Positions 4,089 through 39,457 of a stretch of 39,457 bases of DNA are shown piece after piece (the first letter of the stretch is position 1; each line of letters opens with the position of its first letter). A program made the translations under genes and the position numbers. This stretch comes from Actinomycetota bacterium (GTDB taxonomy: Bacteria; Actinomycetota; Actinomycetes; JAKEEW01): NCBI GenBank assembly GCA_046725875.1, contig JBKOZJ010000177.1:1-39457 (forward strand), given 5' to 3'. The notes beneath the pieces are model-generated. The model ran no database searches. It had not been told where the DNA came from and saw only the letters and a program-made list of their open reading frames with translations.

Positions 4089-4407
4089 CGGCGGCACACG
4101 GGCGGCTACCCGCTCCCGGCAGGAACGGGGAATGTGCGCGCCGTTGACTCGGGTCCGTGGCTTACTGAATTAGCCGCATCCGCGAGGTCGCCACAAGTCG
4201 TGGAAGCCGTGGTGAGGTCCACAGCTTGGCGATATGCTTCAGCGCAATTCCGTGATTGATCGGTCACTAACTGTGCTGTAATGGATCAATAGCATGGAGT
4301 GAAATTACCGAAGCATAAGAGAACCCTGCCCACTCGGCACGCGTACCCAAATTGCCTTGTAGTCGTGCCGTGCAGGCGGAGTTTCTATACCGGAATCCTT
4401 GGCTGAA

Positions 4408-5667: not shown

Positions 5668-5683
5668 TGTGAGATGGATCACC
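5668..5683. promoter_or_regulatory. CRP/GlxR-like binding site
   Basis: TGTGA-gatgga-TCACC, one mismatch from TGTGA-N6-TCACA, immediately upstream of the AAGGAGG RBS of the B12-binding gene. Confidence 0.5.
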
Positions 5684-5697
5684 CTCAAGGAGGTCCG

Positions 5698-6156: not shown

Positions 6157-6263
6157 TCGCCTTCCAGTCCGGACCGACTGCCGGGCCTGCTGCGTAGGAT
6201 TGCCGGCGCCTGCGATTCCGACAGAGATTTCTGACGGAATCCTGACATCCCTGGACACAAACC

Positions 6264-6797: not shown

Positions 6798-6937
6798 CGC
6801 TCATCGGCAGAGGGGGCTAGCGACAGCGGCATGCTGTCTGGAGACTAGGTGAGACCGGCGCCGTGCGCGACGGCGGGCCGGGGCTGGCTGGGCGCCTGCT
6901 TGGAGGGGCCGTGGTCAGCCAATGACGGGAGCTGCGG

Positions 6938-9424: not shown

Positions 9425-9549
9425 CCGGACGGAGCGGTCCTGATCCTGCCGTGTACGTACGTAGGTCCGCCGCCGCCCCGCGACTTCCGACGTGCGCGTG
9501 CGTGAGGTCGCGAGAGGCCCCGAGAGACTCGCGGAATAGAGTCGGCGTC

Positions 9550-9831
9550 ATGTGCCGGAGCATCAAGACACTACGTCCGCCATACACGGAAATGCTCACT
9601 GAGAGCGATGTCCGAGCTGCCGCGCTGCAGTATGTTCGCAAGATCTCGGGGTTCCGGGCTCCGGCGCCGCACAACGCGGCCGCTTTCGACAAGGCCGTCG
9701 AGGCGGTGGCCGCGGCGACTGACGAGCTCCTTCGCACCTTGGTCGTCCGCGGAGCGCAGCCGGCCCAGGCGAGCGGCGTTTCGAAATCACAGCTGCAGGT
9801 TGGAAGGTCAACGCGCCAGGCGGCCAGCTAG
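9550..9831 (+). CDS. DUF2277 family small protein (93 aa)
   Basis: MCRSIKTL...VRAAALQYVRKISGF...N.AAF signature; TAGAGT -10 seven nt upstream suggests a leaderless transcript. Confidence 0.85.
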   Translation: MCRSIKTLRPPYTEMLTESDVRAAALQYVRKISGFRAPAPHNAAAFDKAVEAVAAATDELLRTLVVRGAQPAQASGVSKSQLQVGRSTRQAAS

Positions 9832-9866
9832 CCGATCTCGGCGGATTCTCCTGCCAGGCTCCGTGG

Positions 9867-11135: not shown

Positions 11136-11142
11136 ATGTTCG
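11129..11142. promoter_or_regulatory. LexA (SOS) box
   Basis: Perfect palindrome CGAACATATGTTCG matches the Gram-positive/actinobacterial CGAAC-N4-GTTCG box and overlaps the dinB start. Confidence 0.9.
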
Positions 11143-11232
11143 CATCGACAGCCGACAAGAGCTACCAATGCCGCATCGCCGCCGCCACCGGGAGCGACCG
11201 GGGTACCGGGGATCCAGCGGCGCGGTGGTAGG

Positions 11233-12357
11233 TCAGCGGTGGGATCCGATGGTCGGGAGGACGACCTCGAACCGGCAACCGGTGGCCGTGTTCTCGACCA
11301 TAATGCGGCCGGAGTGCGCCTCCACGATGCCGCGGGCGATGGCCAGACCCAGCCCGGCGCCCTCACCCGGGTGCGGAGTACGGGCGTTGCTCCCGCGCCA
11401 GGCCACGTCGAACACCCGGTCGAGGTCACCGCTCGGGATGCCCCCGCACCCGTCGGTGACGGCCAGCACGGCGCCGTCCTCGCGGGCCGAGGCCCGAACC
11501 AGCACGGTGCCGTCCGATGGGGTGTGTCTGATCGCGTTCACGACAAGGTTGCTGAGCACCCGGGAGATCTGGGTGGGGTCCGCCGGTACGATCAACGGCC
11601 CGATCGCCTCTCCGGTCAGGTGCACACCACGCGACTGCGCTAGTGCGTCCGCGCCCCCGACCGTGTCGCTGACGAGCTCGGTCAGCGAGACCTGGGCGAG
11701 TGACAGCCGCAGCGCGCCGGCGTGAATGCGGGCCAGCTCGAACAGATCGTCGACCATTTCAGAGAGCCGATCCACCTCGACCCTGATCTGCTTGTGATAG
11801 CGCCCGGGGTCGTCGGTGATCCCATCCTCGAGCGACTCAGCCATCGCACGCAGTCCGGCGAGCGGCGTGCGCAGGTCGTGGGAGACCCAGGCGACGAGCT
11901 CCCGGCGGGACGCCTCGAGCGCCCGCTCGCGTTCGCGGGACTCGGCCAGCCGGGCGCTTGTTGCCGCCAGCTCGCCGCTCAGCTCGGCCAGCTCCGCCGT
12001 CACTGGGTTCGGCGGCGGGTCGAAACGCTCGCCCACGCCGAAGGCTCGGGTCGCTGCGCGCAAAGCGCGGCTGCCGGCCACTACCCGCCGGCCGAGTACG
12101 AGCGCCACGGCCAGCGAGATCACGCCGGCAACCAAGCAGATCAGCAGTACGACCTGGAAGTCGTGGCTGGACAGGAACATCGCTGCAGCGGTCGCCACCA
12201 CCCCGGCGACCATGGCAAGGACGGTAATGAGCGCGACCGCGGCCAGCGACATCCACGCCGAGCGGCGGCGTAGCAGCCACAGCGCAAGCAGGCCGACGAT
12301 GCCGACGCCGCCCGCAGCGCCAGCCGTGATCAGGACGACCTGAACGTTGTCACTCAT
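11233..12357 (-). CDS. Membrane sensor histidine kinase (three N-terminal TM segments, HisKA, HATPase_c)
   Basis: SHDLRTPL H-box, NLVVNAIRHT N-box, DGCGGIP, GAGLGLAI. Confidence 0.93.
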   Translation of the reverse strand: MSDNVQVVLITAGAAGGVGIVGLLALWLLRRRSAWMSLAAVALITVLAMVAGVVATAAAMFLSSHDFQVVLLICLVAGVISLAVALVLGRRVVAGSRALRAATRAFGVGERFDPPPNPVTAELAELSGELAATSARLAESRERERALEASRRELVAWVSHDLRTPLAGLRAMAESLEDGITDDPGRYHKQIRVEVDRLSEMVDDLFELARIHAGALRLSLAQVSLTELVSDTVGGADALAQSRGVHLTGEAIGPLIVPADPTQISRVLSNLVVNAIRHTPSDGTVLVRASAREDGAVLAVTDGCGGIPSGDLDRVFDVAWRGSNARTPHPGEGAGLGLAIARGIVEAHSGRIMVENTATGCRFEVVLPTIGSHR

Positions 12358-12430
12358 CCTGACCTACTGATCTGGCCGCCGAGTTTGGCATCGCTGGTGG
12401 CCAGGACCTGGGCAACTACTGCTGGCATCC

Positions 12431-13189
12431 CTACTCGCCCGATCTCGTTGCGGTGCCATCAGCAGTGGCCGGCCTTTGGTCGGCCAGAGGCTCGTCCGGC
12501 GGCGGGTCGAAGCGGTAGCCGATTCCCCAAACGGTGGCGAGCAGTGTCGGGTTGGCCGGGTCCGGCTCGATCTTCTCGCGGAGCCGGCGTACGTGCACGG
12601 TGACCGTCGACTGGTCGCCGAACGACCAGCCCCACACCTTCTCCAGCAGCTCGGCCCTGGTGAACGCTTGACCGGGGTTGGCGAGAAAGAACGCGAGAAG
12701 GTCGAACTCGCGACCAGTGAGCTGCAGCGGCTCGCCAGCCCGCTCGGCGCGGTGGGCGACAACGTCGACCTCGATGTCTCCGGCCCGCCGAAGCCTCGGC
12801 CCGGTCGCTGCCGGATCGGCCATACCGCGGGTACGTCGCAGGACGGCTTCTACCCGGAGTACGAGTTCACGGGGGCTGAACGGCTTGGTCACGTAGTCGT
12901 CCGCGCCGACCTCCAGACCCACCACTCGGTCGCTCTCGGCGCCGAGGGCGGTGAGCATGATGATGGCAACCGGGCCCAGCTCCCGCAAGCGGCGGCAGAC
13001 CTCGAGGCCGTCCAGACCCGGGAGCATGAGATCGAGTACGGCGAGGTCTGGCACCCGCGCCCGAGCCATCGCGAGCGCGGTCGGACCGTCCGCTGCATGG
13101 CCGATCTCCATGCCGGCGCGGCGGAGGTAGCCGACCACCACCTCGGCCACCGTCGGGTCGTCGTCGACGACCAGCACGTTGGCGGTCAT
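12431..13189 (-). CDS. OmpR/PhoB-family response regulator
   Basis: VLVVDDD, LDLMLPG, GADDYVTKPF, winged helix LTGREFDLL...TVTVHVRRLREKIE...TVWGIGY; TAAGCT -10 eight nt upstream of ATG 13189. Confidence 0.93.
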   Translation of the reverse strand: MTANVLVVDDDPTVAEVVVGYLRRAGMEIGHAADGPTALAMARARVPDLAVLDLMLPGLDGLEVCRRLRELGPVAIIMLTALGAESDRVVGLEVGADDYVTKPFSPRELVLRVEAVLRRTRGMADPAATGPRLRRAGDIEVDVVAHRAERAGEPLQLTGREFDLLAFFLANPGQAFTRAELLEKVWGWSFGDQSTVTVHVRRLREKIEPDPANPTLLATVWGIGYRFDPPPDEPLADQRPATADGTATRSGE

Positions 13190-13546
13190 ACCTGAGGAGC
13201 TTAGGTAGCCAAGCGCGCCTTCCTGCCCGGTCTGCTCGGCTTTCCCCGATCCGTAAGCAGTGATGAGCCGTGCCTGCCCGCTTTCCATGGGCCAGGAGCC
13301 CGACCGTCCGACGCTGCGGATGGACCGCGTCGTGTCGTTGGACGGGAAGGACTGGGAACTGTCCTACCGTCGTGGTCTCATTGCTCCTGCCGGCCGCTCC
13401 CGAAGCAGCACGTTGGGGCGGGCGGGCCGATGCTCGGCAGGGCGGGCATCGGGCAATCCGGGATTGTCTCCGGTGCCTTGGCGGGACGACCCGGTGGGTC
13501 GTCGCCCGGGTTCGCGACGAAGATCCGTGCGAGGGGGTGGGTAACC

Positions 13547-16500
13547 ATGGCGGCTGGCTATCGGCTGGTGCGACGCCCGGTTCTACCCGTGAGCGCGCCA
13601 TTGCTGGACCCGCACCAGCGGGCGGTCGTCGACCACCGTGGCGGTCCGTTGCTCGTACTTGCCGGCCCGGGAACGGGCAAGACCACGACGCTGGTCGAGG
13701 CGGTGGCCGATCGTATCGTCAGGGACGGCGTGGCGCCGGGCTCGATCCTCGTGCTGACCTTCAGCCGCAAGGCGGCCGCGGAGCTGCGGGAGCGGATCAC
13801 CACACGGCTCGGCGCGACTACGATCGGCCCGGCGGCGTCGACGTTTCACTCGTTCTGCTACGGGCTGGTCCGCCAGTACCAGTCCGCCGACGCCTTCTTG
13901 CATCCCCTGCGGCTGCTGTCCGGACCCGAGCAGGAGGTGATCGTCCGCGACCTGCTGACCGGCAGCATGGAGTCTGGCCGCGTCGACTGGCCCGGGAGCT
14001 TGCGCGCCAGCCTTGGTACCCGGGGGCTGGCGGCCGAGGTACGCGACGTGATCGCTCGCAGCCGAGGCCTGGCGCTGGATCCGGCGGATTTGCCGCGGCT
14101 GGGGAAACAACGCCCGGTCGGCGATGCCGGCGAGACCTCCGAAACAGCCGAAACGAGCGGCGCTGAGACATGGCGCGCGCTCGCCACGTTCGTCGAGGAG
14201 TATCTGGATGTCCTCGACAGCCAGGGTGCGATCGATTATGCCGAGTTGGTCCACCGCGCGGTCCTGCTCGCCGAGTCCGCGCCGGTCAAGGCCGATCTGC
14301 GGGAATGCTTCCCGGTCGTTTTCGTCGACGAGTATCAGGACACCGATCCCGCCCAGGTACGGTTGCTCAAGGCGATCGCGGGCGACGGCCATGACCTCGT
14401 GGTCTTCGGAGATCCCGACCAGTCGATCTACGCGTTCCGCGGTGCCGATTTGCGTGGCATCCTCGACTTCCCGCAGTCGTTTCTGACTCGCGCCGGGCGG
14501 CCCGCGCCCGTGCGGGCCCTGCGGGTGTCCCGCCGGCTCGGCCCCCGAGTCCTCGCCGCGTCGCGCCGCGTGGCGACCCGACTGCCACTCCCCGGTCTTC
14601 CCGCCGATTCCGTACGCGACCATCGCGGCCTTCGGCCCGGCCACGGGCCGAGAACCGAGCCCCGGGCAAGCTTCGCCGACGCCGTCGAGGTCTATACGTT
14701 TCCCTCGCTTGGCGCCGAGCTCGAGGCCGTCGCCGACCTGCTCCGCCGGGCGCACCTCGAAGACGCCATCTCCTGGTCGGAGATGGCCGTGCTCGTCCGG
14801 TCCGGGCGCCGCTCGATCGCTGTCACCAGACGGGTGCTTGGCGCCGCCGGCGTGCCCCTTGAGGTCGCCGGCGACGAGCTGCCGCTGCCTTCCGAGCCCG
14901 CGGTGGCGCCGTTGCTGCTCGCGCTGCGCTGCATCGCCGACCCCAGGGCCCTCACCGCAGAAGCGGCGGCGGGGCTTCTGCTCTCGCCGCTCGGGGGAGC
15001 CGACGCGGCCAACCTGCGCCGGCTCGGCCGGGCGCTGCGGGCGCAGGAGAGAGCAGCGGTCGCGGCGGAGGGCGGCTCGCTGTCCGAGGTCCGATCCTCT
15101 GCCGAGCTGATCAGGGAAGCCGTCACCGCCCCTGAGAATCTAGTGGCACTCGATGATGCGGTCGCCCGGCCGGCCGTCCAGCTCGGCGGATTGCTCCGCA
15201 ACGCCCGCGAGACCCTGACCGCGACCGGCTCCACCGAGCAGGCGCTGTGGACGCTGTGGTCCAGCACCTCCTGGCCGCGCCGCCTGCTGCGTCAGGTGGA
15301 GCGTGGCGGCGCAGCCGGCCGGCGCGCAGACCGCGACCTCGATGCGCTCTGCGCGCTCTTCCACGCGGCGGCCCGGGCCGAAGAGCGTGGGGGCCACCGC
15401 AGCTCCCTCAGCTTCCTCGCGGAGGTTGAGGCGCAGCAGATCCCGGCGGAGACACTTGCCGAAACCGGTGTGCGCGGCGAGGGAGTACGCCTTCTCACGG
15501 CCCACCGTGCCAAGGGTCTTGAGTGGCGGCTCGTGGTCGTGACCGGCGTACAGGAGGAGGTCTGGCCCGACCTGCGCCGGCGGGGCTCCTTGCTACAGGC
15601 CGACCGGATCGGTCCCGATGGGCTGCAGCCACCGCCGAGCCTGCCGATGCTGCTCGCCGAGGAGCGGCGGCTGTTCTATGTGGCGGTCACCCGCGCCAAG
15701 CAGCGCCTGGTCGTGACCGCGGTCCGGTCCCCGCAGGACGACGGCGAGCAGCCGTCTCGCTTCCTCGACGAGCTAGGCGTTGAGCCAGTCCGGGTCGACA
15801 TGCGGCCGGCGCGGCCAATGACCCTTGCCGGGCTGGTCGCCGACCTGCGCGCCGCCGCTGTCGACCCGTCGGTCTCGGTGGGGGTACGGATGGCGGCCGC
15901 ACGGCGGCTCGCAGCATTGGCATCGGCCACCGACGACGAGGGCGCGGCGCTGGTCCCGGCCGCCCACCCGGACCGGTGGTGGGGGCTTGCGGCGCTGACC
16001 GAGTCCGCCACCCCGGTGCGGGATGCCGATGAGCCGGTGCGGCTGTCGCCAAGTGCGGTCGATGGGCTGCGCGACTGCCCACGGCGCTGGTTCCTCCAGC
16101 GAGAGGTCCGCGCGGACACCGCCCGCTCCACCGCACTCGGATTCGGTAGCGTCGTCCACGCGCTGGCCAAGGAGGTCGCCGACGGGGTCACGCAAGCCGA
16201 CGCGAACGTCTTGCTCGAGCGGCTTGACCGGGTCTGGGGCCAGCTTGCGTTCGAGGCGCGTTGGCAGTCCGTGCAGCAGCGCGAGGAGGCGCGCCGCGCG
16301 GTCCTGCGCTTCCTCAATTGGCATTCCGCGGGCCGCGGCCGCACACCGGCCGCGACCGAGCATCCCTTCGACGTCACCGTGCACGCCGGCGGGGCGGCCG
16401 GTCGGACAGACGGGAGGCCCGCCGTCGGCGGCGGCGTCGAGGTCCGCCTGACCGGCCGAATGGACCGCGTCGAGGTCGACGATGACGGGAACGCATGGGT

Positions 16501-16981
16501 CGTGGATTTCAAGACCGGCAAGAACCCGGCGTCGCAGCAGGATGTCGAGCGCAACCTGCAGCTCGGCGTTTACCAACTGGTCTCGGCGGCCGGCGGCCTC
16601 GCCTCCCTCGGCACTATGCAGGCCGCTGACCCCGGGGGACCGGGAGCCGACGCATCAGTGATGGTCAGCGGCCCATTCGGGCCGACCGAAGATGTGCTCA
16701 CCCAGCTTGGCCGGCCCGGCGAGGGGCGCGGCGTCGGCGGTGCGGAGCTCGTACACCTGCGAGTGGACAACCCGCGCAACCCTGGCGGCCCGAAGGTCCA
16801 GCGGCAGGGTCCGGTCGAGCCGACCGGCGAGGGGCCGACCTGGGTCGAGGAGGCGCTGCTGCATGCGGAGCGACTGGTGCGGGCCGAGCGGTTTCCGGCT
16901 CGGCTCGGCAAGAACTGCGGCTGGTGTGAGTTCCGTGGGTCATGCCCGGCCCAGCCGGAGGGCCGGCAGGTGGTGGAGTAG
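13547..16981 (+). CDS. adnA: AdnA helicase-nuclease subunit (UvrD-like motor plus RecB-like nuclease with Fe-S cysteines)
   Basis: AGPGTGKT, VDEYQD, TAHRAKGLEW, EERRLFYVAVTRA; nuclease GRMDRVE..VVDFKTG; DCPRRW...CGWCEFRGSCP; tandem with adnB upstream of nudC. Confidence 0.9.
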   Translation: MAAGYRLVRRPVLPVSAPLLDPHQRAVVDHRGGPLLVLAGPGTGKTTTLVEAVADRIVRDGVAPGSILVLTFSRKAAAELRERITTRLGATTIGPAASTFHSFCYGLVRQYQSADAFLHPLRLLSGPEQEVIVRDLLTGSMESGRVDWPGSLRASLGTRGLAAEVRDVIARSRGLALDPADLPRLGKQRPVGDAGETSETAETSGAETWRALATFVEEYLDVLDSQGAIDYAELVHRAVLLAESAPVKADLRECFPVVFVDEYQDTDPAQVRLLKAIAGDGHDLVVFGDPDQSIYAFRGADLRGILDFPQSFLTRAGRPAPVRALRVSRRLGPRVLAASRRVATRLPLPGLPADSVRDHRGLRPGHGPRTEPRASFADAVEVYTFPSLGAELEAVADLLRRAHLEDAISWSEMAVLVRSGRRSIAVTRRVLGAAGVPLEVAGDELPLPSEPAVAPLLLALRCIADPRALTAEAAAGLLLSPLGGADAANLRRLGRALRAQERAAVAAEGGSLSEVRSSAELIREAVTAPENLVALDDAVARPAVQLGGLLRNARETLTATGSTEQALWTLWSSTSWPRRLLRQVERGGAAGRRADRDLDALCALFHAAARAEERGGHRSSLSFLAEVEAQQIPAETLAETGVRGEGVRLLTAHRAKGLEWRLVVVTGVQEEVWPDLRRRGSLLQADRIGPDGLQPPPSLPMLLAEERRLFYVAVTRAKQRLVVTAVRSPQDDGEQPSRFLDELGVEPVRVDMRPARPMTLAGLVADLRAAAVDPSVSVGVRMAAARRLAALASATDDEGAALVPAAHPDRWWGLAALTESATPVRDADEPVRLSPSAVDGLRDCPRRWFLQREVRADTARSTALGFGSVVHALAKEVADGVTQADANVLLERLDRVWGQLAFEARWQSVQQREEARRAVLRFLNWHSAGRGRTPAATEHPFDVTVHAGGAAGRTDGRPAVGGGVEVRLTGRMDRVEVDDDGNAWVVDFKTGKNPASQQDVERNLQLGVYQLVSAAGGLASLGTMQAADPGGPGADASVMVSGPFGPTEDVLTQLGRPGEGRGVGGAELVHLRVDNPRNPGGPKVQRQGPVEPTGEGPTWVEEALLHAERLVRAERFPARLGKNCGWCEFRGSCPAQPEGRQVVE

Positions 16982-16983
16982 CG

Positions 16984-19900
16984 ATGGAGTCGGTAGGTCA
17001 CCGGACGGCGGACATCACGGCGCCTCTGCTCGCGGCCGGCGACCTGTCCCAACTCCTTGAGGTCCCATTCACGCCCGAGCAGTTCGCCGCCATCAGCGCG
17101 CCGGCCGAGCCGGCCGTCGTTCTGGCCGGAGCGGGCTCAGGCAAGACCACCGTGATGGCCGCGCGAGTGGTCTGGCTGGTGGCAACCGGCCAGGTTGCAC
17201 CCGACCAGGTGCTGGGTTTGACGTTCACCAAGAAGGCGGCGGGGGAGCTGGCCCACCGGATCAGGACAGTGCTTGCCCGGCTGCGGTGGCCACCGATTTC
17301 CCAGACTTTGCAGGGGCCGTACCCGTTGATGCCCGACGAGAACGCCGGGGAGCCGACGGTCTCGACCTATCACGCCTACGCGGGGCGGCTGATCAGCGAG
17401 CACGGGCTGCGCATCGGCGTAGAGCCAGACGCTCGGCTACTCGCGGACGCGACCCGTTACCAGCTCGCCACCAGGGTGATCAGACAGGCGACCGGCCCGT
17501 TCTCGGCGCTGACCGGGCGGGTGTCGGACATCGTCGACGACCTGGTCGCACTCGACGCCGAGCTGTCCGAGCACCTCGTCGGCACGGACGAGCTGCGCGA
17601 CTACGACAAAACGACCAGGTTGGAGATCGAGTCGTCGGCGAAGCTGACCAACGGCCTGGTAGCCGCGTTGAACTCGATCGCCAGGCGGCATGAGCTAGCC
17701 GCACTCGTCGATGACTACCGTCGGGCCAAGCGGGAGCGGGCGGTTGTGGACTTCTCCGACCAGATGGCGCTCGCCGCGACGCTCGCCGAGCAGCGCCCGG
17801 AGGTCGGCACCGCCGAGCGGGACAGGTTCCACATCGTTCTGCTCGACGAATATCAAGACACATCCGTGGCGCAGCGCAGGATGCTGGCGGGACTGTTCCG
17901 TGACGGTCATCCGGTAACCGCAGTCGGCGACCCCTGCCAAGCGATCTACGGCTGGCGGGGTGCTTCGGTCGCCAACCTCGAGGAGTTCCCGAGCCACTTT
18001 CCGCGGCGGCACGGCGGTCCCGCACACCGTTATGCGCTGATCGAGAACCGCCGCAGCGGTGAGCGCATCCTGACGGCCGCCAACTCGCTGTCTGGTCCGC
18101 TCCGCAAGGCTCATGAAGGAGTCGGCGAGCTTCGGGTCGCGCGCGACCGTAGGGGGCAGGGCTGGATCCGGTGTGCGTTGCACGAGACGTACGCGGAGGA
18201 GATCGCCTGGCTCGGTGCGCAGGTCAAGGCGGCGCTCGAGGCCGGCACCCCAGCCGCTCAAGTCGCGATCCTGGTCCGGGTCACCAGCGATTTCGCAGCC
18301 ATCCACACCGAGCTGACCCAGCGTGACATCCCGGTCGAAGTCGTCGGGCTCGGCGGGTTGCTCGCGCTTCCCGAGGTCGCCGACGTCGTCGCCACCCTCC
18401 GCGTGCTGGACGACCCGACAAGCAACGCCGCGCTGGTCCGGCTCCTCGCCGGCCCGCGGTGGCGGATCGGACCGCGTGACCTGGCCCTGCTCGGTCGGCG
18501 GGCCGGCCAGCTCGTGTACGTACCGGACCCCCGGCGCAGTGATCTAGTCCCGGCCTCCGGCGACGCGCCGGAGGTGCCCGATCCGGACGCCATCCTGGAG
18601 GAGGCGGTCGGCGGAATCGACCCGGCCGAGGTTGTGTCGCTCGCCGACGCCCTCGTGTCACCGGGTCGTTTTGGCTACTCGGCGGAGGCGCTTGCCCGAT
18701 TCGGAGCGCTCGCCGCCGAGATCCGCGAGCTGCGCAGGCACCTCGGCGAGCCGCTGCTTGAATTGCTTCACCAGGTGGTGACGGTGATCGGGCTCGACGT
18801 CGAGCTCGGCGCGAGTCCGCAAGCTCGCGCGGCGCGTCGGCGCGAGTCGCTCGCCGCCTTCCTCGACGTCGCCGCGCAGTTTCGCGATCTCGAGGACGAC
18901 GCGTCGCTGGGTGCCTTCCTCGCCTACCTCCAGGCCGCGGACGAGTACGAACGCGGGCTGGACGGCGCAGCGCCCAGCGGCGCTGAGTCGGTAAAGCTGC
19001 TGACTGTCCACCGGGCCAAGGGCCTGGAGTGGGACGTCGTCCTGCTACCCGACCTCACCGCGAGCGTCTTCCCGGCCGGTCGCGGCCGGACCCGCTGGAC
19101 GCGCAGCGGGAAGGTGTTGCCATTCGGGCTGCGCGGCGACTGTGCATCGCTCCCCGAGGTCGCCGAGTGGAGCACGCAAGGACTTGAGACCTTCGACCGC
19201 GTGTGTCGCGAGCTCGACGACCTGGAGGAGCTGCGGCTCGGCTATGTTGCGGTAACCCGCCCGCGGCATCTGCTCATCGCGAGCAGCCATTGGTGGGGGC
19301 CGGCGCAGAAGAAGCCGCGCGGACCGTCCCCCTATCTCGAGACGCTGGCAGCGCAGTGCCGGAACGGCGGCGGCGAGATCGTCCGGTGGGTCGAGCAGCC
19401 CGCCGAAGCGGAGAATCCCTATCTCGGAGCGGCCGCCGAGGCGGCCTGGCCGGCGGCCCTCGACCCGGTGGCACTCGACCTGCGGCGCGCCGCGGCGGAT
19501 CAGGTGCTCGACATGCTCGGCGCTGACCGCCGCGATGGCCGATATGAGCAGTTGTCATTGCTCGGGCCGGGCAGCCTCACGGCGGTGGCAGGCGGGCATC
19601 ACAGTAGCCGCGGTCCTCGGGACCCGGAGCTCACGCCGTCCGAAGCTGCGCTGGTCGCTGCCTGGGACCGCGACATCGACATGCTTCTCACCGAGGCGAG
19701 GCGGCTGCGCCGGCGGGACCGCGACGTGTCGCTGCCGACGACGCTCTCGGCCTCGCAGCTCATGCGGCTGGCCGACGACGCCGACGCCTTCGCTCGCGAG
19801 CTCGTCCGCCCGCTCCCCCGCAAGCCGGACCCAGCGGCTCGACAGGGCACTCGGTTCCACGCATGGGTGGAGTCCCGGTTCGGACAGCAGCCGCTGCTCG

Positions 19901-24082: not shown

Positions 24083-24107
24083 CGTCCTGGCACCAGTAGC
24101 TCCGTAC

Positions 24108-24137
24108 CGATGACTTCCGGGGCGTCGCCCGGTCTTA
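24108..24137 (+). promoter_or_regulatory. Putative ECF-sigma (SigG/ECF56-like) promoter
   Basis: CGATGA-N18-GTCTTA resembles the CGATGA-N18-GTC motif reported for mycobacterial SigG; about 30 nt upstream of ORF 24168. Confidence 0.5.
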
Positions 24138-24167
24138 TGTGTGAGCCATCGAACCGGAAGAGGGACC

Positions 24168-24353
24168 ATGATGTTCTCCATTACCTGCCCACGCCACGGC
24201 TCAGACGTCCTGGTCGGAAGTCGCCGGATCCGGTCGCTCGGCAATTCCGAGACCGGCATCGCGCTCGAGATCGAGTGCTACTGCGGCACGTACGTGCTTC
24301 TCGAAACCGGCCGCAACTATGTCAGTCAGGCCAGCGTCCGGGCAGCTGCGTGA
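24168..24353 (+). CDS. Small putative metal-binding protein (CPxH...CxC), 61 aa
   Basis: MMFSITCPRHG...ECYCG; GAAGAGGGA RBS; fills the intergenic gap. Confidence 0.7.
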   Translation: MMFSITCPRHGSDVLVGSRRIRSLGNSETGIALEIECYCGTYVLLETGRNYVSQASVRAAA

Positions 24354-24449
24354 CGGAGCTCCTGCCTTCGTACGAGCTTCGACGGCAGCACCGTCCCCAC
24401 TCGATGCTCCGAGATGGTCACACAACCCCTTCCAGCAAGGAGTAAGAGG

Positions 24450-24596
24450 ATGTATCTCATAAACGAAGATCTCGCCCGCGTACATATACGGGAACGACAG
24501 CGAGAGGCGCAGGATGCGCGAGCCGCCTATGAACTGCTCTATGTACGAAAGGAGCGGCGCAAGGCGGATGAGGCGAAGCCGGCGTCCGGAGCCTAG
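24450..24596 (+). CDS. Small helical basic protein, 48 aa, paralogue of 25625-25798
   Basis: MYLINEDLARVHIR...; AAGGAG RBS; 26 of 48 residues identical, without gaps, to the protein downstream of whiB7. Confidence 0.75.
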   Translation: MYLINEDLARVHIRERQREAQDARAAYELLYVRKERRKADEAKPASGA

Positions 24597-24663
24597 CGAG
24601 CAAGGATCGTTAGCCGGAGGGTGCCCCAGCGGGGCTCGGGCGTCGGTTCGGTAACCGTTGCCG

Positions 24664-24701
24664 TAAATGGTTTGCGCACACTCCCCCTGCGGCCTTAGCG
24701 T
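24664..24701 (+). promoter_or_regulatory. WhiB7-type autoregulated SigA promoter
   Basis: AT-rich TAAAT just upstream of -35 TTGCGC (24672-24677), 18-bp spacer, -10 TAGCGT (24696-24701). Confidence 0.7.
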
Positions 24702-24806
24702 TTTGTCTCGCGGGTGCGCGCACGCGCGCGCCCCAACAGCGCCGGGGTTCCTGGACCGTCGGCGGTCCGGGCGCCAAGATCGAGAAGCAGACAGGAGGTG
24801 GCCCCG

Positions 24807-25103
24807 GTGGAGAGCACTTACCCCGTGACGTCGGCGGCCGTCCTGCCTGTTGCCGCCCCGGTGTCCGACGACGCCCGCTGCTGGATCCGTCCGCTTCGGA
24901 GGACCCTTGCGCCCGCCTTCGGGCCGGTCAAGGGGACCCGTATGTCCATCGTCGGGTCTTTGGCTGGCCCGTCGGTCGCCGGCACAGCCGCTAACGCGTG
25001 TGAGCGCTACGTCGTTTCCATCCTTCCGACCGTCGAGAAGCAGCAGGCCACGGGCGCCGCCTTCGGCGCCATCCCGGTCCGCACCTGGAGTCCACCGGTC
25101 TAG
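24807..25103 (+). CDS. whiB7/wblC upstream leader ORF (uORF, 98 aa)
   Basis: AGGAGGTG RBS then GTG 24807; lies between the promoter and the attenuator, with its stop codon inside a hairpin. Confidence 0.7.
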   Translation: MESTYPVTSAAVLPVAAPVSDDARCWIRPLRRTLAPAFGPVKGTRMSIVGSLAGPSVAGTAANACERYVVSILPTVEKQQATGAAFGAIPVRTWSPPV

Positions 25104-25126
25104 ACGACACTAGATCCGGCACCTCC

Positions 25127-25170
25127 AGGGCCGCGGAACCCAAACCGGGATCCGCGGCCCTTCCGTTTAT
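25127..25170 (+). terminator. Attenuator (intrinsic terminator) in the whiB7 leader
   Basis: Stem AGGGCCGCGGA (25127-25137) / TCCGCGGCCCT (25151-25161) followed by TCCGTTTAT. Confidence 0.8.
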
Positions 25171-25198
25171 CCGAGCGAAACGTTATCCGAGCGAAACG
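25167..25198. repeat. Perfect 16-bp tandem duplication
   Basis: TTATCCGAGCGAAACG at 25167-25182 and 25183-25198. Confidence 0.95.
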
Positions 25199-25220
25199 AG
25201 ATCACAAGGAGGTGACCTCG

Positions 25221-25496
25221 GTGCAGTTGGTGCTTGTCGAAGACCTCGACAGCCAAAACGGAGAGCTTCCATGCCGGATCTACGACCCCGAGCTGTTCTT
25301 CGCGGAGAAGCCTGAGGACGTCGAGTTTGCGAAGGCCCTCTGCCGGACCTGCCCGGTGCGTATCCAGTGCCTTGCCGGTGCTCTCGCCCGGCGTGAGCCC
25401 TGGGGTGTCTGGGGTGGCGAGCTGTTCGTCCAGGGCGTGGTCGTGCCGCGCAAGCGGCCCCGGGGACGTCCCCGCAAGACCGAGATTGCCGCATGA
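25221..25496 (+). CDS. whiB7: WhiB7/WblC Fe-S transcriptional activator (91 aa)
   Basis: LPC...DPELFFAE...AKALCRTCP...C, EPWGVWGGE turn, C-terminal AT-hook RPRGRPRK; AAGGAGGTGA RBS before GTG 25221; uvrD2-whiB7-ABC1 synteny. Confidence 0.95.
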   Translation: MQLVLVEDLDSQNGELPCRIYDPELFFAEKPEDVEFAKALCRTCPVRIQCLAGALARREPWGVWGGELFVQGVVVPRKRPRGRPRKTEIAA

Positions 25497-30071: not shown

Positions 30072-30212
30072 TGTGGACAACGGTGTGGAGGGGATGGGGA
30101 CCGGCTGGGGTGTCGCTGTGGAAGCTCGGTTTACGACGCTGTGGACAGCAGCTCAACGGTCGGTGTACGGCACGCCTGACCTGCGTTAACGCCGTCCCCC
30201 GGATGTGGAGAA
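30072..30212. promoter_or_regulatory. Cluster of DnaA-box-like nonamers
   Basis: TGTGGACAA (exact reverse complement of TTGTCCACA) at 30072 plus TGTGGA-containing variants at 30084, 30117, 30140 and 30204, all co-oriented. Confidence 0.5.
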
Positions 30213-30259
30213 AACAAAGATGCTCGGCTCTTCACCCGTTTGGCCTGTACCTTTCGGAC

Positions 30260-30913
30260 GTGGCCGTCAATCCCACTGAGCCCGGCAGCTCACGCGCCGG
30301 CGCGCCGGATGGAGATCCGGCAGCGGAGTCTGCCGAGGCTGAGTCGGTGGCCGTCGCCGCCCCGCTGGACAGCCTCAATGGGCCGACTTCGGGGTCCGAT
30401 CAGAGGGTGGAGGTGCGCCGGAGCGCGCGCCGGCGCCGCACCGTGTCGGCCTACCGCGACGGCGATCGTACGGTCGTGCTTATTCCGGCCCGGATGAGCC
30501 GCGCGGAGGAGCGGCACTGGGTCGAGGCGATGGTCGCCCGTCTCGAGCGTCAGGAGTCGCGGCTGCGTCCGAGTGACGATGCGCTGCTGGCGCGGGCGAA
30601 GCTGCTGTCGGCGCGCTACCTCGACGGCATGGCCGACCCGGCGAGCGTGCGGTGGGTGCCCAACCAGCGCCACCGCTGGGGATCGTGTACTCCATCGGAC
30701 CGGGCCATCCGCGTGTCGGCTCGGCTCCGCGGGATGCCGGAGTACGTCGTCGATTACGTGCTCCTGCACGAGCTTGCGCATCTAGTCGTGCCCGGCCATG
30801 GCTCCGACTTCTGGAGGCTGCTCAGTCGCTACCCGAAGACCGACCGGGCGCGCGGCTACCTCGATGGCGTCGCGGCCACCGCCCACCTCGACCTCTCCGA
30901 TGAAGCCGATTGA
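30260..30913 (+). CDS. M48-like/YgjP (DUF45) metallo-hydrolase
   Basis: VEVRRSARRRRTVSA, RWGSCT, YVLLHELAHL (HExxH), HG..FW; TACCTT -10 six nt before GTG 30260 (leaderless). Confidence 0.88.
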   Translation: MAVNPTEPGSSRAGAPDGDPAAESAEAESVAVAAPLDSLNGPTSGSDQRVEVRRSARRRRTVSAYRDGDRTVVLIPARMSRAEERHWVEAMVARLERQESRLRPSDDALLARAKLLSARYLDGMADPASVRWVPNQRHRWGSCTPSDRAIRVSARLRGMPEYVVDYVLLHELAHLVVPGHGSDFWRLLSRYPKTDRARGYLDGVAATAHLDLSDEAD

Positions 30914-35515: not shown

Positions 35516-38494
35516 GTGACATTCGACATGCCCGGGCGGAGGCCCCGCCGACCGGACCGCCCGACGCGGATGTTCGCGCGGCGGCCACGCGCGCTGGTGC
35601 CCACGCTCGTCGTGCTGGTCGCACTCATCATCTTCTTCAGTATCTTCACCAACCAGTGGACCGAGCTGCTGTGGTACCGATCGGTCGGTTACTCCGATGT
35701 CTTCAGGACGCGGCTGGTGACGAAGCTGCTCCTGTTCCTGGTGTTCGGGCTCATCATGGGCGGATCGATCGCGGGAACTATCTATGCGGCCTACCGCCTG
35801 CGGCCCGCGTTCCGCGGCACGTCGACCGAGCAGCAGAGCCTCGACCGCTACCGCACGGCGATCGACCCCTACAAGCGGTTGATCGTCATCGGGCTCAGCG
35901 CCTTCATCGGTCTGCTCGGTGGGCTCGCCGCCTCCAACGAGTGGCGCACCTGGCTGCAGTGGCGGAACAAGGTGTCGTTCGGCATCGAAGACCCGCAGTT
36001 CCACAAGGACATCTCGTTCTTCGCGATGACGCTGCCCTGGTGGCGCTTCGTCATCGGGTTCTTCTTCGCGGTCGTGATCCTCGCGTTGATCGCGACCGTC
36101 GCCACGCACTATTTGTACGGCGGCATTAGGTTCCAGGCTCGCGGCGAGCGGGTGGCACCTGCCGCCGCCGCGCACCTGTCGGTTCTCCTTGGCGTTTTCG
36201 TGCTGCTGAAGGCGGTGGCCTACTGGCTGGACCGGTATGGCCTCGCCGTCGCCAGCGAGCGGTTCGTCGTGAGCGGCTGGACCGGCCTACGCTATCGCGA
36301 CGTCAACGCGCTGCTGCCGGCGAAGACGATCCTGGCCGCGATCGCGCTCATCTGCGCCATCCTGTTCTTCGCCAACGTGGTCAGGCGCACGTGGCTGCTC
36401 CCGGTCATTGGCTTCGGGCTGCTCGTCGTCTTCGCGATCGTCATCGGCGGCATCTATCCGGCGATCGTCCAGCAGTTCCAGGTCAAACCGTCGGAGCGGC
36501 AGCTCGAAGCGAAGTACATGGGCCGGAACATCGAGGCCACCCGGGCCGCCTACGGGCTGAACGACGTCGACATCAAGGCATACAACGCGCAAACGGCGGC
36601 GACCGAGGGCCAGCTGCGCAACGACGCCGACACGACGGCGAGCGTGCGGCTGATGGACCCGGCCGTCGTGTCGCCGACCTTCAAGCAGGACCAGCAGGTG
36701 CGTGGGTTCTACGAGTTCCCCGACACGCTCGATGTCGACCGTTACCGGGTCGATGGGCAGAGGCAGACCCAGGATGTCGTGGTGGGGGTCCGCGAGCTCG
36801 AACAGGCAGGACTACCCACAAACCAGCGGAACTGGATCAACGACCACCTGGTCTACACGCACGGCTTCGGCTTCGTCGCGGCCCGCGGGAACACTCGGCA
36901 GCCGACCGGGCATCCGTCCTACATCGAGGCAGACATACCGCCGCAAGGCACCCTCGGCGAGTTCCAGCCGCGGGTCTATTACGGCGAGCAGGCCCCTTCG
37001 TACTCCATCGTCGGCGCGCCCGAGGGAACCACGCCGGCCGAGCTTGACTACCCGGACGACCGGCAGCCCAACGGCCAGGCGAACACAACCTATACCGGCG
37101 CCGGCGGGGTCAAGATCGGATCGTTCTTCAACAAGCTCCTCTACGCCGTGAAGTACCGCGAGGAGAAGATCTTCCTATCCAGCGGCGTCAACTCCGAATC
37201 GCGCATCCTCTACGTACGCAACCCGCGGGAGCGTGTGGAAAAGGTCGCGCCGTGGCTCACCGTGGATAGCAACACCTACCCGGCAATCGTCGACGGCCGG
37301 CTGGTGTGGATCGTGGACGGCTACACCACGACCGGCGGCTACCCCTACTCGTCCCGGCGGACGCTGGGCGAGGTGACCGAGACGTCGCTTACCACTGAGA
37401 ACCGCGCGGTCATCGCGCCGCAAGACACGGTGAACTACATCCGCAACTCGGTGAAGGCGATGGTCGACGCTTACGACGGCACGGTGACGCTGTACGCGTG
37501 GGACGAGTCCGACCCCATCCTGAAGATGTGGATGAAGGCCTTTCCGGGGACGGTAAAGCCGCGTTCGGATATCTCCGATGGGCTGATGGCACACCTGCGC
37601 TACCCCGAGGACCTGTTCAAGGTGCAGCGCGACCTGCTCGCCCAATACCACGTGACCGACGCGACCGCGTTCTACTCCGGCCAGGACTTCTGGCGGGTGC
37701 CAGCCGATCCGACCGGTGACGGTGGCGACCAGCCGCCGTACTACCTGACGATCCGGATGCCGGACCAGGAGGACGCGACCTTCTCGCTTACGAGCACGCT
37801 GGTGCCGACCAACCGGCAGAACCTCGCCGCGTTCGTCGCGGTCGACGCCAACCCCGGGTCCGACTACGGGAAGTTGCGCGTGCTGGAACTGCCGCGAAAC
37901 ACGGTCATCCCGGGACCGGCCCAAGTCCAGAATAACTTCCGTTCCAACACCCAAATCTCGCAGCGGCTCAACCTGCTCACCCGTGGTGGGCAGTCGAACG
38001 TCGTCTACGGCAACCTGCTCACCCTGCCGGTCGGCGGCGGGTTGCTCTACGTCGAACCGGTGTACGTGGAAGGCGCCAGTGGCAGTGCGACCTTCCCGCT
38101 GCTGAGGCTGGTCTTGGTGTCCTTCGGCGATCAGATTGCGATCAGCGAGACGTTGCAGGGTGGGCTGGACGCAATCTTCAGTGGCAACGCGGGAACCGAG
38201 ACCGGCGAGGAGCCACCGCCCAGCGGGCAACAGCCACCTCCAGCGGGCGGCGAGCAGCCACCGAACGCCGCTCTCACCGCACAACTCGCCAAGGCATTGG
38301 CGGACGCACAAACGGCGTACGACCGCGGGCAGGCGGCCCTGCGGTCGGGCGACTTCGCTGCGTACGGAGAGGCGCAGCAGCAGTTGGCCGCGGCATTGCG
38401 GCGGGCCGAGGACCTGGGCCGGCGGCTGACCGCCGCGGGCACCACGCCGACGGCATCTCCGAGTGCATCACAGACGGCCACACCCTCCCAATGA
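35516..38494 (+). CDS. UPF0182 family integral membrane protein
   Basis: LWYRSVGY, DPQFHKDISFF, NIEATRAAYGL, WINDHLVYTHGFG, PRVYYGE, ERVEKVAPWL, NYIRNSVKA, HLRYPEDLF, GNLLTLP. Confidence 0.95.
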   Translation: MTFDMPGRRPRRPDRPTRMFARRPRALVPTLVVLVALIIFFSIFTNQWTELLWYRSVGYSDVFRTRLVTKLLLFLVFGLIMGGSIAGTIYAAYRLRPAFRGTSTEQQSLDRYRTAIDPYKRLIVIGLSAFIGLLGGLAASNEWRTWLQWRNKVSFGIEDPQFHKDISFFAMTLPWWRFVIGFFFAVVILALIATVATHYLYGGIRFQARGERVAPAAAAHLSVLLGVFVLLKAVAYWLDRYGLAVASERFVVSGWTGLRYRDVNALLPAKTILAAIALICAILFFANVVRRTWLLPVIGFGLLVVFAIVIGGIYPAIVQQFQVKPSERQLEAKYMGRNIEATRAAYGLNDVDIKAYNAQTAATEGQLRNDADTTASVRLMDPAVVSPTFKQDQQVRGFYEFPDTLDVDRYRVDGQRQTQDVVVGVRELEQAGLPTNQRNWINDHLVYTHGFGFVAARGNTRQPTGHPSYIEADIPPQGTLGEFQPRVYYGEQAPSYSIVGAPEGTTPAELDYPDDRQPNGQANTTYTGAGGVKIGSFFNKLLYAVKYREEKIFLSSGVNSESRILYVRNPRERVEKVAPWLTVDSNTYPAIVDGRLVWIVDGYTTTGGYPYSSRRTLGEVTETSLTTENRAVIAPQDTVNYIRNSVKAMVDAYDGTVTLYAWDESDPILKMWMKAFPGTVKPRSDISDGLMAHLRYPEDLFKVQRDLLAQYHVTDATAFYSGQDFWRVPADPTGDGGDQPPYYLTIRMPDQEDATFSLTSTLVPTNRQNLAAFVAVDANPGSDYGKLRVLELPRNTVIPGPAQVQNNFRSNTQISQRLNLLTRGGQSNVVYGNLLTLPVGGGLLYVEPVYVEGASGSATFPLLRLVLVSFGDQIAISETLQGGLDAIFSGNAGTETGEEPPPSGQQPPPAGGEQPPNAALTAQLAKALADAQTAYDRGQAALRSGDFAAYGEAQQQLAAALRRAEDLGRRLTAAGTTPTASPSASQTATPSQ

Positions 38495-38517
38495 TGCGGG
38501 GGATCAATTGGCGTGCA

Positions 38518-38591
38518 TGTGGATGGACTGGTGGACAACCAGTGGACAACGGCCCTGAACCTGGGGGTAACGCAGCGGTTTCTGTGGACTG
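38518..38591. promoter_or_regulatory. Second cluster of DnaA-box-like nonamers
   Basis: GTGGACAAC direct repeat at 38531 and 38542 (11-bp period), plus TGTGGATGG at 38518 and TGTGGACTG at 38583. Confidence 0.45.
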
Positions 38592-38671
38592 ACTTAGAGG
38601 TTGCAAAGAATCTTGAAATAGCCTTGTCAGACCCCTTGCGCGGGCGTTTCGGCAGAGATAGAAATCTCTCA

Positions 38672-38975
38672 CGCCACCAGAGATGGTGACCCGCTCAGAA
38701 GGAAACTTCGGAGCTAGCGAGCACTAGGGAACTTGGGATTTCGCGAAAGTGAGTTCCCAAGGATCGGTGTTCGTGAAAGGTCCACCTGATTGGTGAGCCG
38801 CCAGGGGAGGCAGCTCCCCGGGCAGGCGGGCGCCGGGTCAACCGGGGTTCGCCGAGGTTCCACCAAGTGATGGTGGCGGGTTCTGCGGAACCACGCACCG
38901 AGCGATCGGAGCGTTGGGACCGTGGAACTGAGAGGCCCCTTCCATCTCATACATGGAAGGGGCCTCTCCCTTATA
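38672..38975 (+). ncRNA. Candidate ~300-nt structured non-coding RNA, family unassigned
   Basis: Upstream AT-rich tract and TTGCGC-N17-TAGAAA(T); consecutive hairpins with GAGA, GAAA, GAAA and GCAG tetraloops; G-U pairs favour the + strand; ends in a 16-bp perfect stem; no + strand ORF in the ORF track. Confidence 0.6.
38930..38975. terminator. Strong hairpin terminator, possibly bidirectional
   Basis: GAGAGGCCCCTTCCAT-ctcatac-ATGGAAGGGGCCTCTC perfect 16-bp stem followed by CCTTATA. Confidence 0.8.
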
Positions 38976-39177
38976 ACCCATTCTTGCCGGTCGCTTCTTC
39001 CCCCATCGCGAACGACACGCCGACGCTGTTGATGAGTCGGTCGTGAGGACCTTCCCTCATGCCGTATTTCACGCAGTGCCCGTGATCCGGAGCATGCGCA
39101 ACGCGAGCCGGCGCGGGACGGACGTAGCCTGCTCGTTTGCGGGCGTGTCGGTCCGCTCTCCGCGGGCGTTTAGTTCA

Positions 39178-39457
39178 TCAGACGTCGAGCGTCCGCAACA
39201 CCGCTCGTTCCGCCAGGTCCCGAACATCTTCGGCCACCTGGTCGCTCTCCGGATCGAGGCGCAGTCCCCGGGCTGCCATTCCACCCTTCTCGAACTCGAG
39301 GACGACCCGCGGCGCGACATAGGACGAGCGGGTCACGGCCCGGGTGTTGCCAAGCTGCTCGGCGACGCGGTCCAATGCCGAATTCACCGCTAGTGCGGTC
39401 GCCCGCTTGGTTTCGAGCGGGCCGGCCTCGTGCTCCTCGGCAAGCGCGATCGCCGCG
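39178..39457 (-). CDS. Bacterial type IB DNA topoisomerase, C-terminal part (runs off the window)
   Basis: Open frame to the window edge: AAIALA...VAEQLGNTRAVTRSSYVAPRV matches the TopIB LGNTxAVxRxSY active-site tyrosine motif, and ends in ERAVL. Confidence 0.8.
   Translation of the reverse strand, partial: AAIALAEEHEAGPLETKRATALAVNSALDRVAEQLGNTRAVTRSSYVAPRVVLEFEKGGMAARGLRLDPESDQVAEDVRDLAERAVLRTLDV

Follow-up and report, generated by a model that had tools for sequence, protein, structure and literature searches.

The 39,457-nt contig JBKOZJ010000177.1 of an Actinomycetota bacterium (assembly GCA_046725875.1), analysed at its full length and hereafter termed the window, carries between a UPF0182 gene and a convergent topoisomerase-IB-like gene an element that folds far beyond chance. 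The analysis makes it highly likely that this element is a conserved, structured RNA gene acting in trans, and points, with somewhat less assurance, to a stand-alone + strand gene whose product would be a structured non-coding RNA of some 305 nt, from a family outside Rfam 15. An earlier note, made from the letters of the window alone, had predicted an independently transcribed large non-coding RNA in this region. That prediction is supported here by an exceptional fold, by the existence of homologues, by substitutions that preserve the fold on the + strand and by the non-coding nature of the conserved block in which the element lies.

Stability of the predicted fold

The + strand of positions 38660-38975 presented a minimum free energy (MFE) of -183.4 kcal/mol (z -9.9), and none of 100 shuffled sequences folded as well; the - strand reached -150.4 kcal/mol (z -7.3). 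When the 3' hairpin was left out (38672-38928), z remained at -8.9 on the + strand and -4.5 on the - strand, indicating that the folding signal is not owed to the terminator, and the closed junction domain by itself (38672-38878) yielded values of -8.7 and -5.5. The difference between strands is due to 12 G.U pairs in the + strand MFE structure. G.U wobbles had been taken in the earlier note as a sign of a + strand RNA, a view borne out by these pairs and by the restriction of fold-preserving substitutions to that strand. The flanking stretches were unremarkable (z -0.3 at 38501-38700 and -1.6 at 38976-39177), and a background of 175 windows of 200 nt, taken from the + strand of the first 17.6 kb (1-17600) with 25 shuffles each, presented a mean z of -0.38, a standard deviation of 1.12 and a minimum of -3.75.

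Homologous sequences recovered through antisense reading frames

A profile-free search with the 67-aa minus-strand open reading frame (ORF) at 38695-38898 against 1.84 billion representative proteins returned two real hits (P0001 and P0002); three further hits, of low complexity and located in long proteins, were dropped. P0002 served as the next query, followed by an alignment of five such ORFs, and of the 8000 candidates scored, 31 proteins reached E<=0.01. These relatives are unnamed or annotated as 'hypothetical protein', contain no Pfam domain, span 94-327 aa and derive from metagenomes, with the longest contigs of the assemblies that carry them measuring 621-97831 nt. Rich in Arg, Ser and Pro, they look like spurious gene calls.

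Each of the 31 proteins was aligned to both strands of 38300-39200 with a frameshift-aware dynamic programme. All of them mapped antisense, to the minus strand, with scores of 136-433 versus 38-67 on the other strand; each required between 1 and 14 frame changes to follow the window, and most of the ORFs begin at one of two ATGs in the terminator loop. This pattern implies that the DNA block is conserved and that its reading frame is not. The block, extending from 38507 to about 38985, is hence present in no fewer than 31 environmental sequence clusters with no reading frame conserved, and codon-level conservation of the minus-strand ORFs, which the earlier note had named as grounds for abandoning an RNA gene, was not seen in any of the 31.

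For base-level comparison, each aligned residue was back-translated into all bases compatible with it, codons two steps or less from a frame change being disregarded, and a position was considered definitely changed if the window base was not among these. The sample is confined to sequences that carry a long antisense ORF. Under this definition, the rate of definite change is 50-80% to the left of 38507, mostly 0-30% within 38507 to about 38985, and 40-60% to the right of about 38985, where few ORFs reach. The conserved block opens 13 nt past the UPF0182 stop codon and presents, from left to right, the following features: four repeated boxes, an AT-rich block, TTGCGC, a spacer, TAGAAAT, the 5' strand of helix P1, GAAA-type loops and a 16-bp hairpin (Table 1).

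Preservation of the fold by substitutions

Within 38672-38929, definite changes affect 730 of 3184 informative cells (22.9%) at paired positions, versus 409 of 1159 (35.3%) at unpaired ones. Replacements of G.U by G-C or A-U, and of Watson-Crick pairs by G.U, are common, as observed for the pairs 38717-74, 38743-50, 38882-926, 38884-924, 38885-923 and 38891-917. Among 60 double-changed cells with at most two possible bases on each side, pairing is certain in 24, possible in 22 and precluded in 14, compared to ranges of 10-16, 4-28 and 13-35, respectively, in six controls with slid partners.

In a substitution test, the 20-60 definite changes of each homologue were introduced into the window RNA and the result was folded, with controls in which these changes were moved to randomly chosen informative positions carrying an identical base. 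Loss of stability was smaller for the observed substitutions than for the controls in 28 of 30 homologues (means of -129.2 versus -120.9 kcal/mol). On the + strand, the fold-preserving effect reached 8.2 kcal/mol and was seen in 29 of 30 homologues, versus 1.0 kcal/mol and 16 of 30 on the - strand; the + strand fold was the more stable of the two in 29 of the 30. No other observation argues as strongly for selection acting on a + strand RNA as this strand-specific preservation of the fold.

Consensus folding with RNAalifold on back-translated rows, with N at the unknown bases, was uninformative (-7.8 kcal/mol). Filling the unknowns from the window, a procedure that leans towards the window, retained P1, P2, P4, part of P5, P8, P9, P10 and the terminator.

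Table 1. Coordinates of the predicted RNA, its helices and the surrounding features.
Feature	Position	Strand	Remarks
UPF0182 gene	35516-38494	+	Pfam PF03699, E 8.6e-295
Four GTGGA(C/T) boxes	38518-38591	+	TGTGGATGG, GGTGGACAA, AGTGGACAA, TGTGGACTG; one orientation; conserved
AT-rich block	38605-38619	+	AAAGAATCTTGAAAT; conserved; just upstream of the -35-like hexamer
-35-like hexamer TTGCGC	38636-38641	+	Conserved in informative homologues
-10-like TAGAAAT	38659-38665	+	T38659, A38660, A38664 and T38665 kept in all informative homologues
Predicted RNA, about 305 nt	38671-38975	+	Start inferred from promoter-like motif, end from hairpin
P1, 5' strand	38672-38679	+	CGCCACCA; pairs with 38871-38878 (UGGUGGCG); closes junction; MFE
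Local stem CACCA-GAGA-TGGTG	38675-38688	+	Sequence
P2, 5' strand UGGUG	38684-38688	+	Pairs with 38861-38865
P3 hairpin	38693-38714	+	GAAA loop; GGAAAC conserved, arms vary; local stem GCTC.GAAG-GAAA-CTTC.GAGC (sequence)
P4-P5 long hairpin	38717-38774	+	GAAA loop at 38745-48; also drawn as local stem (sequence)
P6 hairpin	38779-38799	+	GGU.CACC / GGUG.GCC; MFE; mixed support
Local stem CACC-TGATT-GGTG		+	Sequence
P7 hairpin	38800-38823	+	Local stem GCC.GGGGAG-GCAG-CTCCCC.GGC (sequence)
P8 hairpin	38825-38853	+	GGCGGGC.CCGG / CCGG.GUUCGCC; stem nearly invariant
Local stem CCGG-GTCAA-CCGG		+	Sequence
Local stem CCACCA-AGTGA-TGGTGG		+	Sequence
P9-P10 hairpin	38879-38929	+	GCGA loop at 38902-05
Local stem GGTTC-TGCG-GAACC		+	Sequence
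16-bp hairpin, 7-nt loop	38930-38968	+	No change at informative positions; would terminate the RNA or stabilise its 3' end; also drawn as local stem (sequence)
3' end of topoisomerase-IB-like gene	39178-39456	-	Reading frame from GC content at third codon positions (GC3) = 0.80

Architecture of the predicted RNA

The data support a model in which P1 and P2 would close a junction holding P3, P4-P5, P6, P7 and P8, followed by P9-P10 and by a 3' hairpin that would end the RNA. Inspection of the sequence located every stem that had been listed in the earlier note, at the positions given there. All eight of its local stems are present in the window, but two of them (CACCA/TGGTG and GGTTC/GAACC) give way to long-range pairings in the homologues. 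Specifically, the closing pair of CACCA-GAGA-TGGTG is broken by T38684 changing to C, a change that is compensated in the long-range helix P2, and the GGTTC-TGCG-GAACC hairpin is broken by A38890 changing to T in at least 10 homologues.

The two strands of P1 are near-invariant among homologues, and therefore uninformative for covariation. In P2, the T38684-A38865 pair is replaced by C with G or T in 9 homologues, and the changes of A38862 to G and of C38861 to T maintain wobble pairs. The arms of P3 fall in a stretch in which all homologues have a frame change. The P4-P5 hairpin presents G38717.T38774 replaced by G-C in 12 homologues and G38743.T38750 by G-C in at least 7; within P5, T38733-A38760 becomes C-G in 4 and T38734-A38759 becomes C-G in 2. 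Beyond the lost G38804-C38819 pair discussed below, the main clade also presents G38805 changed to C and C38816/17 changed to T in P7; drawn by hand, without computation, this clade may form a hairpin shifted by two bases. Changes in P8 are located in the bulge at 38832, in the loop at 38840 and on sides compatible with wobble pairing.

In P10, C38896-G38911 is replaced by G-C in 11 homologues and by G-T in 4. Elsewhere in the P9-P10 hairpin, A38893-T38915 is replaced by G-G, and thus broken, in 5, T38882-A38926 becomes T-G in up to 17 homologues, T38884.G38924 becomes C-G in 9 and G38885.T38923 becomes G-C in up to 13; the changes of T38884 and T38923 to C fit a longer P9 helix.

Promoter-like motif and 3' hairpin

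The stretch preceding the predicted RNA had been described in the earlier note as an AT-rich tract followed by a promoter-like TTGCGC-N17-TAGAAA(T). The AT-rich tract was corroborated, with the block at 38605-38619 conserved and a local GC content of 0.51-0.59 across 38500-38780, versus 0.687 window-wide. This block is placed as an UP element would be, a function that its position suggests. The promoter-like motif is present and conserved, and its 17-nt spacer (38642-58) is fixed in length and variable in sequence. Conserved hexamers separated by a variable spacer of fixed length look like a promoter, even though the motif is not called by a consensus scan and its -10 element is non-canonical. 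An AGAGAT-AGAA-ATCTCT hairpin or palindrome overlying the -10-like element (38654-69) was also considered, and is not kept as a pair in the homologues.

The 16-bp stem that had been designated as a terminator is present and invariant, but it lacks a following T-run, which accounts for its not being called by the terminator scan. The invariance of this hairpin (38930-38968), loop included, exceeds what a plain terminator would need; for the loop, part of it may reflect selection bias, given that the antisense ORFs start at ATGs located in the loop.

GTGGA(C/T) boxes upstream of the promoter-like motif

The first three of the four boxes are spaced 11-12 nt apart, and the group lies approximately 80-150 nt upstream of the predicted start. 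In informative homologues the box cores do not change, whereas the bases that separate them do, and the pattern has no 3-base periodicity. The high-affinity DnaA box of actinobacteria has been described as TTGTCCACA (PMC4285127). The boxes resemble its reverse complement: two of them, 11 nt apart, match TGTGGACAA at 8 of 9 positions, and the other two are weaker. DnaA-box matches with at most one mismatch number 10 across the window, versus 3.4 expected, a count reached by 3 of 100 shuffles; the bare GTGGAC core is not enriched (31 versus 27.5 expected window-wide). DnaA could be the protein binding these boxes, as could another protein, and direct repeats spaced by 11-12 nt would also suit a response-regulator site. 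A small + strand ORF overlying this upstream block (38513-38689) was dropped, its conservation showing no 3-base periodicity and its product matching no family.

A second group of DnaA-box-like sequences, also in one orientation, is found elsewhere in the window, with the perfect TGTGGACAA at 30072, TGTGGACAG at 30140 and TGTGGAGAA at 30204. This group (30072-30212) sits at the start of a gene for a YgjP-like metallopeptidase (30083-30913).

Known families and coding potential

The earlier note had recognised no signature of RNase P RNA, tmRNA, SRP RNA, tRNA, raiA or Ms1 and had proposed a search of Rfam as a check. Scanning of the whole window with the 4227 models of Rfam 15 returned no match at gathering score, and ARAGORN detected no tRNA and no tmRNA. 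A permissive scan of 38480-39180 (E<=10) produced seven chance hits, all far below gathering scores; they involve microRNA, small nucleolar RNA or small RNA models and all but one fall on or next to the terminator hairpin. Nor were matches to the element found by blastn in its 'distant' mode in phage and plasmid collections. The local ORFs matched no Pfam or NCBIfam family, and a word-based protein search with the 78-aa minus-strand ORF returned nothing. Codon-position bias was absent from every frame at 38500-38780, and no GC3 signal was detected over 38500-38975.

The next gene past the 3' hairpin is convergent and none follows on the + strand, in agreement with the earlier argument that the element is not a riboswitch leader. 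A reading as a riboswitch or other cis-acting leader thus has no downstream gene on the same strand, and neither Rfam scan matched a riboswitch family. With a convergent gene as its next neighbour, an RNA made from this element would be expected to act in trans. These data identify the element as a candidate new family among the stand-alone structured RNAs of bacteria, absent from Rfam 15.

Observations that weigh against a conserved RNA gene

Several observations weigh against the interpretation of the element as a conserved RNA gene. With respect to the comparative evidence, the bases of the homologues are inferred from translations of antisense ORFs, which leaves third codon positions mostly unknown and alignments near frame changes uncertain, and the homologues are related to each other, so that their counts are not independent events. 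Upon permutation of homologue labels, the fraction of tolerated changes was not significant (0.548 versus 0.545, reached by 117 of 300 permutations), and the number of double compatible changes was borderline (46 versus 38.5 +/- 4.1, reached by 11 of 300). As to the covarying homologues whose lack, according to the earlier note, would have counted against an RNA, homologues exist and compensatory pairs, read from back-translated bases, occur in P2, P5 and P10; none of the note's refuting conditions that were examined contradicted an RNA gene.

Individual helices also present broken pairs. A38723-T38768 becomes A-A in 5 homologues, the A38689-T38858 pair is broken in 9, and the apical pair of P8 (G38836-C38842) is lost as A-C in 12. 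In P6, T38781, paired with G38797, is replaced by a purine in 6 homologues, and in P7 the main clade presents C instead of G38804 opposite an unchanged C38819, also in 6. The pseudo-alignment consensus does not retain P3, P6 or P7. As regards transcription signals, the consensus scan of 38400-39457 identified no sigma-70-like promoters, TAGAAA does not end in the T that TANNNT requires unless the motif is taken as a 7-mer, and the 16-bp hairpin went uncalled by the terminator scan.

The distribution of the element is a further point of this kind. A scan of a genome collection with the UPF0182 query provided 80 loci of the 97 relatives confirmed among 134 pattern matches, with the window's own genome not among them. 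The closest UPF0182 proteins in these loci, at 84-85% identity, belong to two metagenome-assembled genomes of Actinomycetota (Actinomycetes), all others reaching at most 59%, and both of these genomes lack the element at this position. Their nucleotide similarity to the window spans UPF0182 and ends at window position 38457-38460, and the gene is followed after some 220 nt (L001 5958-6180, L002 5961-6178) by a same-strand gene for an ABC-transporter ATPase, so that the shared gene order stops exactly where UPF0182 ends. Across the 80 loci, blastn with 38600-38990 gave matches at chance level only (best E 6.6e-4, 99 nt, 67% identity), nhmmer with the same region gave none, and tblastn with the 31 antisense ORFs returned no hit. 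Given its absence from the closest loci, the element is not a fixed companion of UPF0182.

Alternative explanations

Among the alternatives to a new RNA family, the one that survives best, itself unlikely, is that the element represents the Ms1 RNA of this lineage, too diverged for Rfam and displaced from its usual neighbourhood, in which case its family would be a known one. Ms1 (MTS2823 / scr3559) is a small RNA of Actinobacteria that binds the RNA polymerase core and accumulates in stationary phase. It measures about 300 nt and is equipped with a promoter and a terminator of its own (PMC4191392). The earlier note had placed the element in this size class, and the approximately 305 nt that separate the start deduced from TTGCGC-17-TAGAAAT from the last base of the 16-bp hairpin indeed match the 304 nt reported from start to terminator in M. 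smegmatis (PMC4191392). Both, the element by prediction, are stand-alone RNAs of actinobacterial hosts with a sigma-A-like promoter and a 3' end formed by a hairpin; neither is followed by a gene on the same strand, and both show weak sequence conservation outside close relatives. Ms1 sequences are so weakly conserved that Rfam finds them only near mycobacteria, and candidates have been described in 824 species from 14 orders (PMC9130861); the lack of an Rfam match even at E<=10 constitutes weak evidence against Ms1, since the model finds only mycobacterial relatives.

Gene context and predicted architecture speak more clearly against Ms1. By synteny, Ms1 is flanked by a gene for a HAD-IB hydrolase, or 'inhibition of morphological differentiation' protein, and by an oxidoreductase gene (PMC9130861), whereas the element is flanked by UPF0182 and the topoisomerase-IB-like gene, and no HAD domain was detected in the 23 window proteins scanned. 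The terms 'UPF0182' and 'topoisomerase' do not occur in the main text of PMC9130861, and the literature retrieved on Ms1 RNA, Actinobacteria and synteny, like PMC9130861, PMC4191392 and PMC11077062, contained nothing with this gene context, the element's own sequence not having been searched in the literature. Ms1 folds as one long hairpin with a central bubble, whereas the predicted fold of the element comprises a junction closed by P1/P2 with five to six internal hairpins, followed by P9-P10. Comparison by eye, without an alignment, revealed no likeness to the S. coelicolor Ms1 sequence, and a conserved 12-nt stretch of the window was not found in the supplement that prints it. Membership in the Ms1 family is not supported.

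Other known RNAs were compared as well. 6S RNAs, widespread in bacteria except Actinobacteria (PMC9130861), are likewise trans-acting, highly structured and independently transcribed, features that for the element are predicted, but they measure about 180-200 nt and fold as a rod with a central bubble, whereas the element is branched and matched no 6S model in Rfam. The CoRP RNA of Corynebacterium, a 516-nt RNA that binds RNA polymerase, lies between tRNA genes and is cleaved into fragments of 318 and 198 nt (PMC11077062). Compared by description only, it resembles the element in being a structured actinobacterial RNA restricted to a lineage and lacking likeness to 6S or Ms1, and differs from it in length and in its location among tRNA genes, none of which are present in the window. 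The raiA motif, OLE, ROOL and GOLLD are orphan large structured RNAs of bacteria, all of which are expected in Rfam. Like the element, they encompass multiple helices and GNRA loops, are conserved without a known function and are not gene leaders; none of them was matched in the Rfam scans, and the element, at about 300 nt, is smaller than OLE, ROOL and GOLLD.

Less probable than Ms1 is the explanation that there is no separate gene, the region being a 3' untranslated or terminator zone that UPF0182 and the convergent topoisomerase-IB-like gene share, with hairpins that merely end or stabilise the two mRNAs. The location between convergent genes, a 16-bp hairpin that is symmetric and folds on both strands, and the lack of a canonical promoter call would all fit such a zone. 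It is harder to reconcile with the closest genomes, which keep UPF0182 without the block, or with conservation that sets in shortly past the UPF0182 stop and far exceeds that of the neighbouring gene tail. A branched structure of about 250 nt far exceeds what a terminator needs, the hexamers with their variable spacer look promoter-like, and the substitutions that preserve the fold on the + strand alone lie well upstream of the hairpin.

Marginally less probable still is a DNA-level element, either a DnaA-titrating site or an origin or attachment region of an integrated mobile element, in which the hairpins would matter as DNA. Four conserved DnaA-box-like repeats adjoin a conserved AT-rich block, the block is missing from the closest genomes at this site, and the flanks of the homologues are unmatched to UPF0182 loci, as might be expected of such an element. 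Selection on the fold is nonetheless specific to one strand and depends on G.U pairs, which amount to mismatches in DNA as well as on the opposite strand; furthermore, the element occurs as a single copy in the window, has no replication or integration genes nearby and finds no match in the phage or plasmid collections. Finally, that a minus-strand ORF (38714-38950 or 38695-38898) encodes a small protein can be practically dismissed, since although these ORFs are open and have 31 'hypothetical protein' relatives in the databases, the relatives follow the window only through frame changes, and the ORFs present no GC3 bias, a composition rich in Arg, Ser and Pro, and no family match.

Genomic context

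The spacer containing the element spans 683 nt between its two convergent neighbours. The product of the gene on its right, a C-terminal fragment, shows weak likeness to a type IB topoisomerase (PDB 2f4q, E 0.028). The genes preceding UPF0182 in the window encode UvrD/PcrA-type helicases, a helicase-nuclease pair, and NUDIX, WhiB, ABC1 kinase, Zincin_2 and PDZ-Lon proteins, a stretch that resembles the Rv3202c-Rv3193c region of M. tuberculosis. Apart from the element and its spacer, the window is an ordinary segment of actinobacterial chromosome.

Two other regions of the window deserve mention. The strongest folding in the background set is found at 5201-5800 (z -3.75 at 5201 and -3.14 at 5601), just upstream of and into a small gene for a B12-binding domain (5572-6156), with no Rfam match, cobalamin riboswitches included. 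Separately, the roughly 1.1 kb at 24083-25211, between a uvrD-like/HRDC helicase gene and a WhiB-family gene (25212-25496), contain no ORF that passes the GC3 filter. This stretch holds short ORFs only and could be a long leader of the WhiB gene.

Proposed mode of action and implications

In the reading of the element as a stand-alone RNA gene, transcription would start some 6-8 nt after TAGAAAT (about 38671-38673), at the first base of P1. The domain closed by P1/P2 would enclose hairpins P3-P8, three of them with conserved GNRA-type loops, and would be followed by P9-P10 as a second hairpin domain and by the 16-bp 3' hairpin, ending or stabilising the transcript. The branched fold, its GNRA loops and the near lack of long single strands in the model would fit a protein-binding or self-contained RNA better than a small RNA pairing antisense with its targets, and the RNA may thus act in trans as a stable protein-binding RNA, with transcription possibly set by the upstream direct repeats of DnaA-box-like GTGGAC.

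By analogy with 6S, Ms1 or CoRP RNAs, RNA polymerase would be the likeliest single partner, although the likelihood of this particular partner is low, and the supported fold is a branched junction, unlike 6S and Ms1, which form a rod interrupted by a central bubble. CoRP shows that lineage-specific RNAs associated with RNA polymerase exist, and its authors propose that each species has one abundant RNA of this kind, which may be unlike 6S or Ms1 (PMC11077062). A bolder version, which we regard as a long shot, would make the element the founding member of a new class of abundant RNA polymerase-associating RNAs, functionally equivalent to 6S, Ms1 and CoRP, with an unrelated branched fold and transcription set by a DnaA-box-like cluster, in an uncultured actinomycete lineage. 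If true, the amount of free RNA polymerase would be linked to the state of the replication initiator.

Outside gene leaders, bacteria have few structured RNAs that reach or exceed about 300 nt, and those with a known role are central to the cell, as in the case of RNase P, tmRNA, 6S and Ms1. If borne out, the element would add a new RNA-database entry from a lineage known only from metagenomes, and would illustrate, as a test case, how RNA genes can be detected from the spurious antisense ORFs to which they give rise in protein databases. The DnaA-box-like repeats, if real, would represent an unusual regulatory input for a small RNA. The element would also provide a concrete candidate for the lineage-specific RNA polymerase-associating RNA that, according to PMC11077062, is predicted for bacteria lacking 6S and Ms1.

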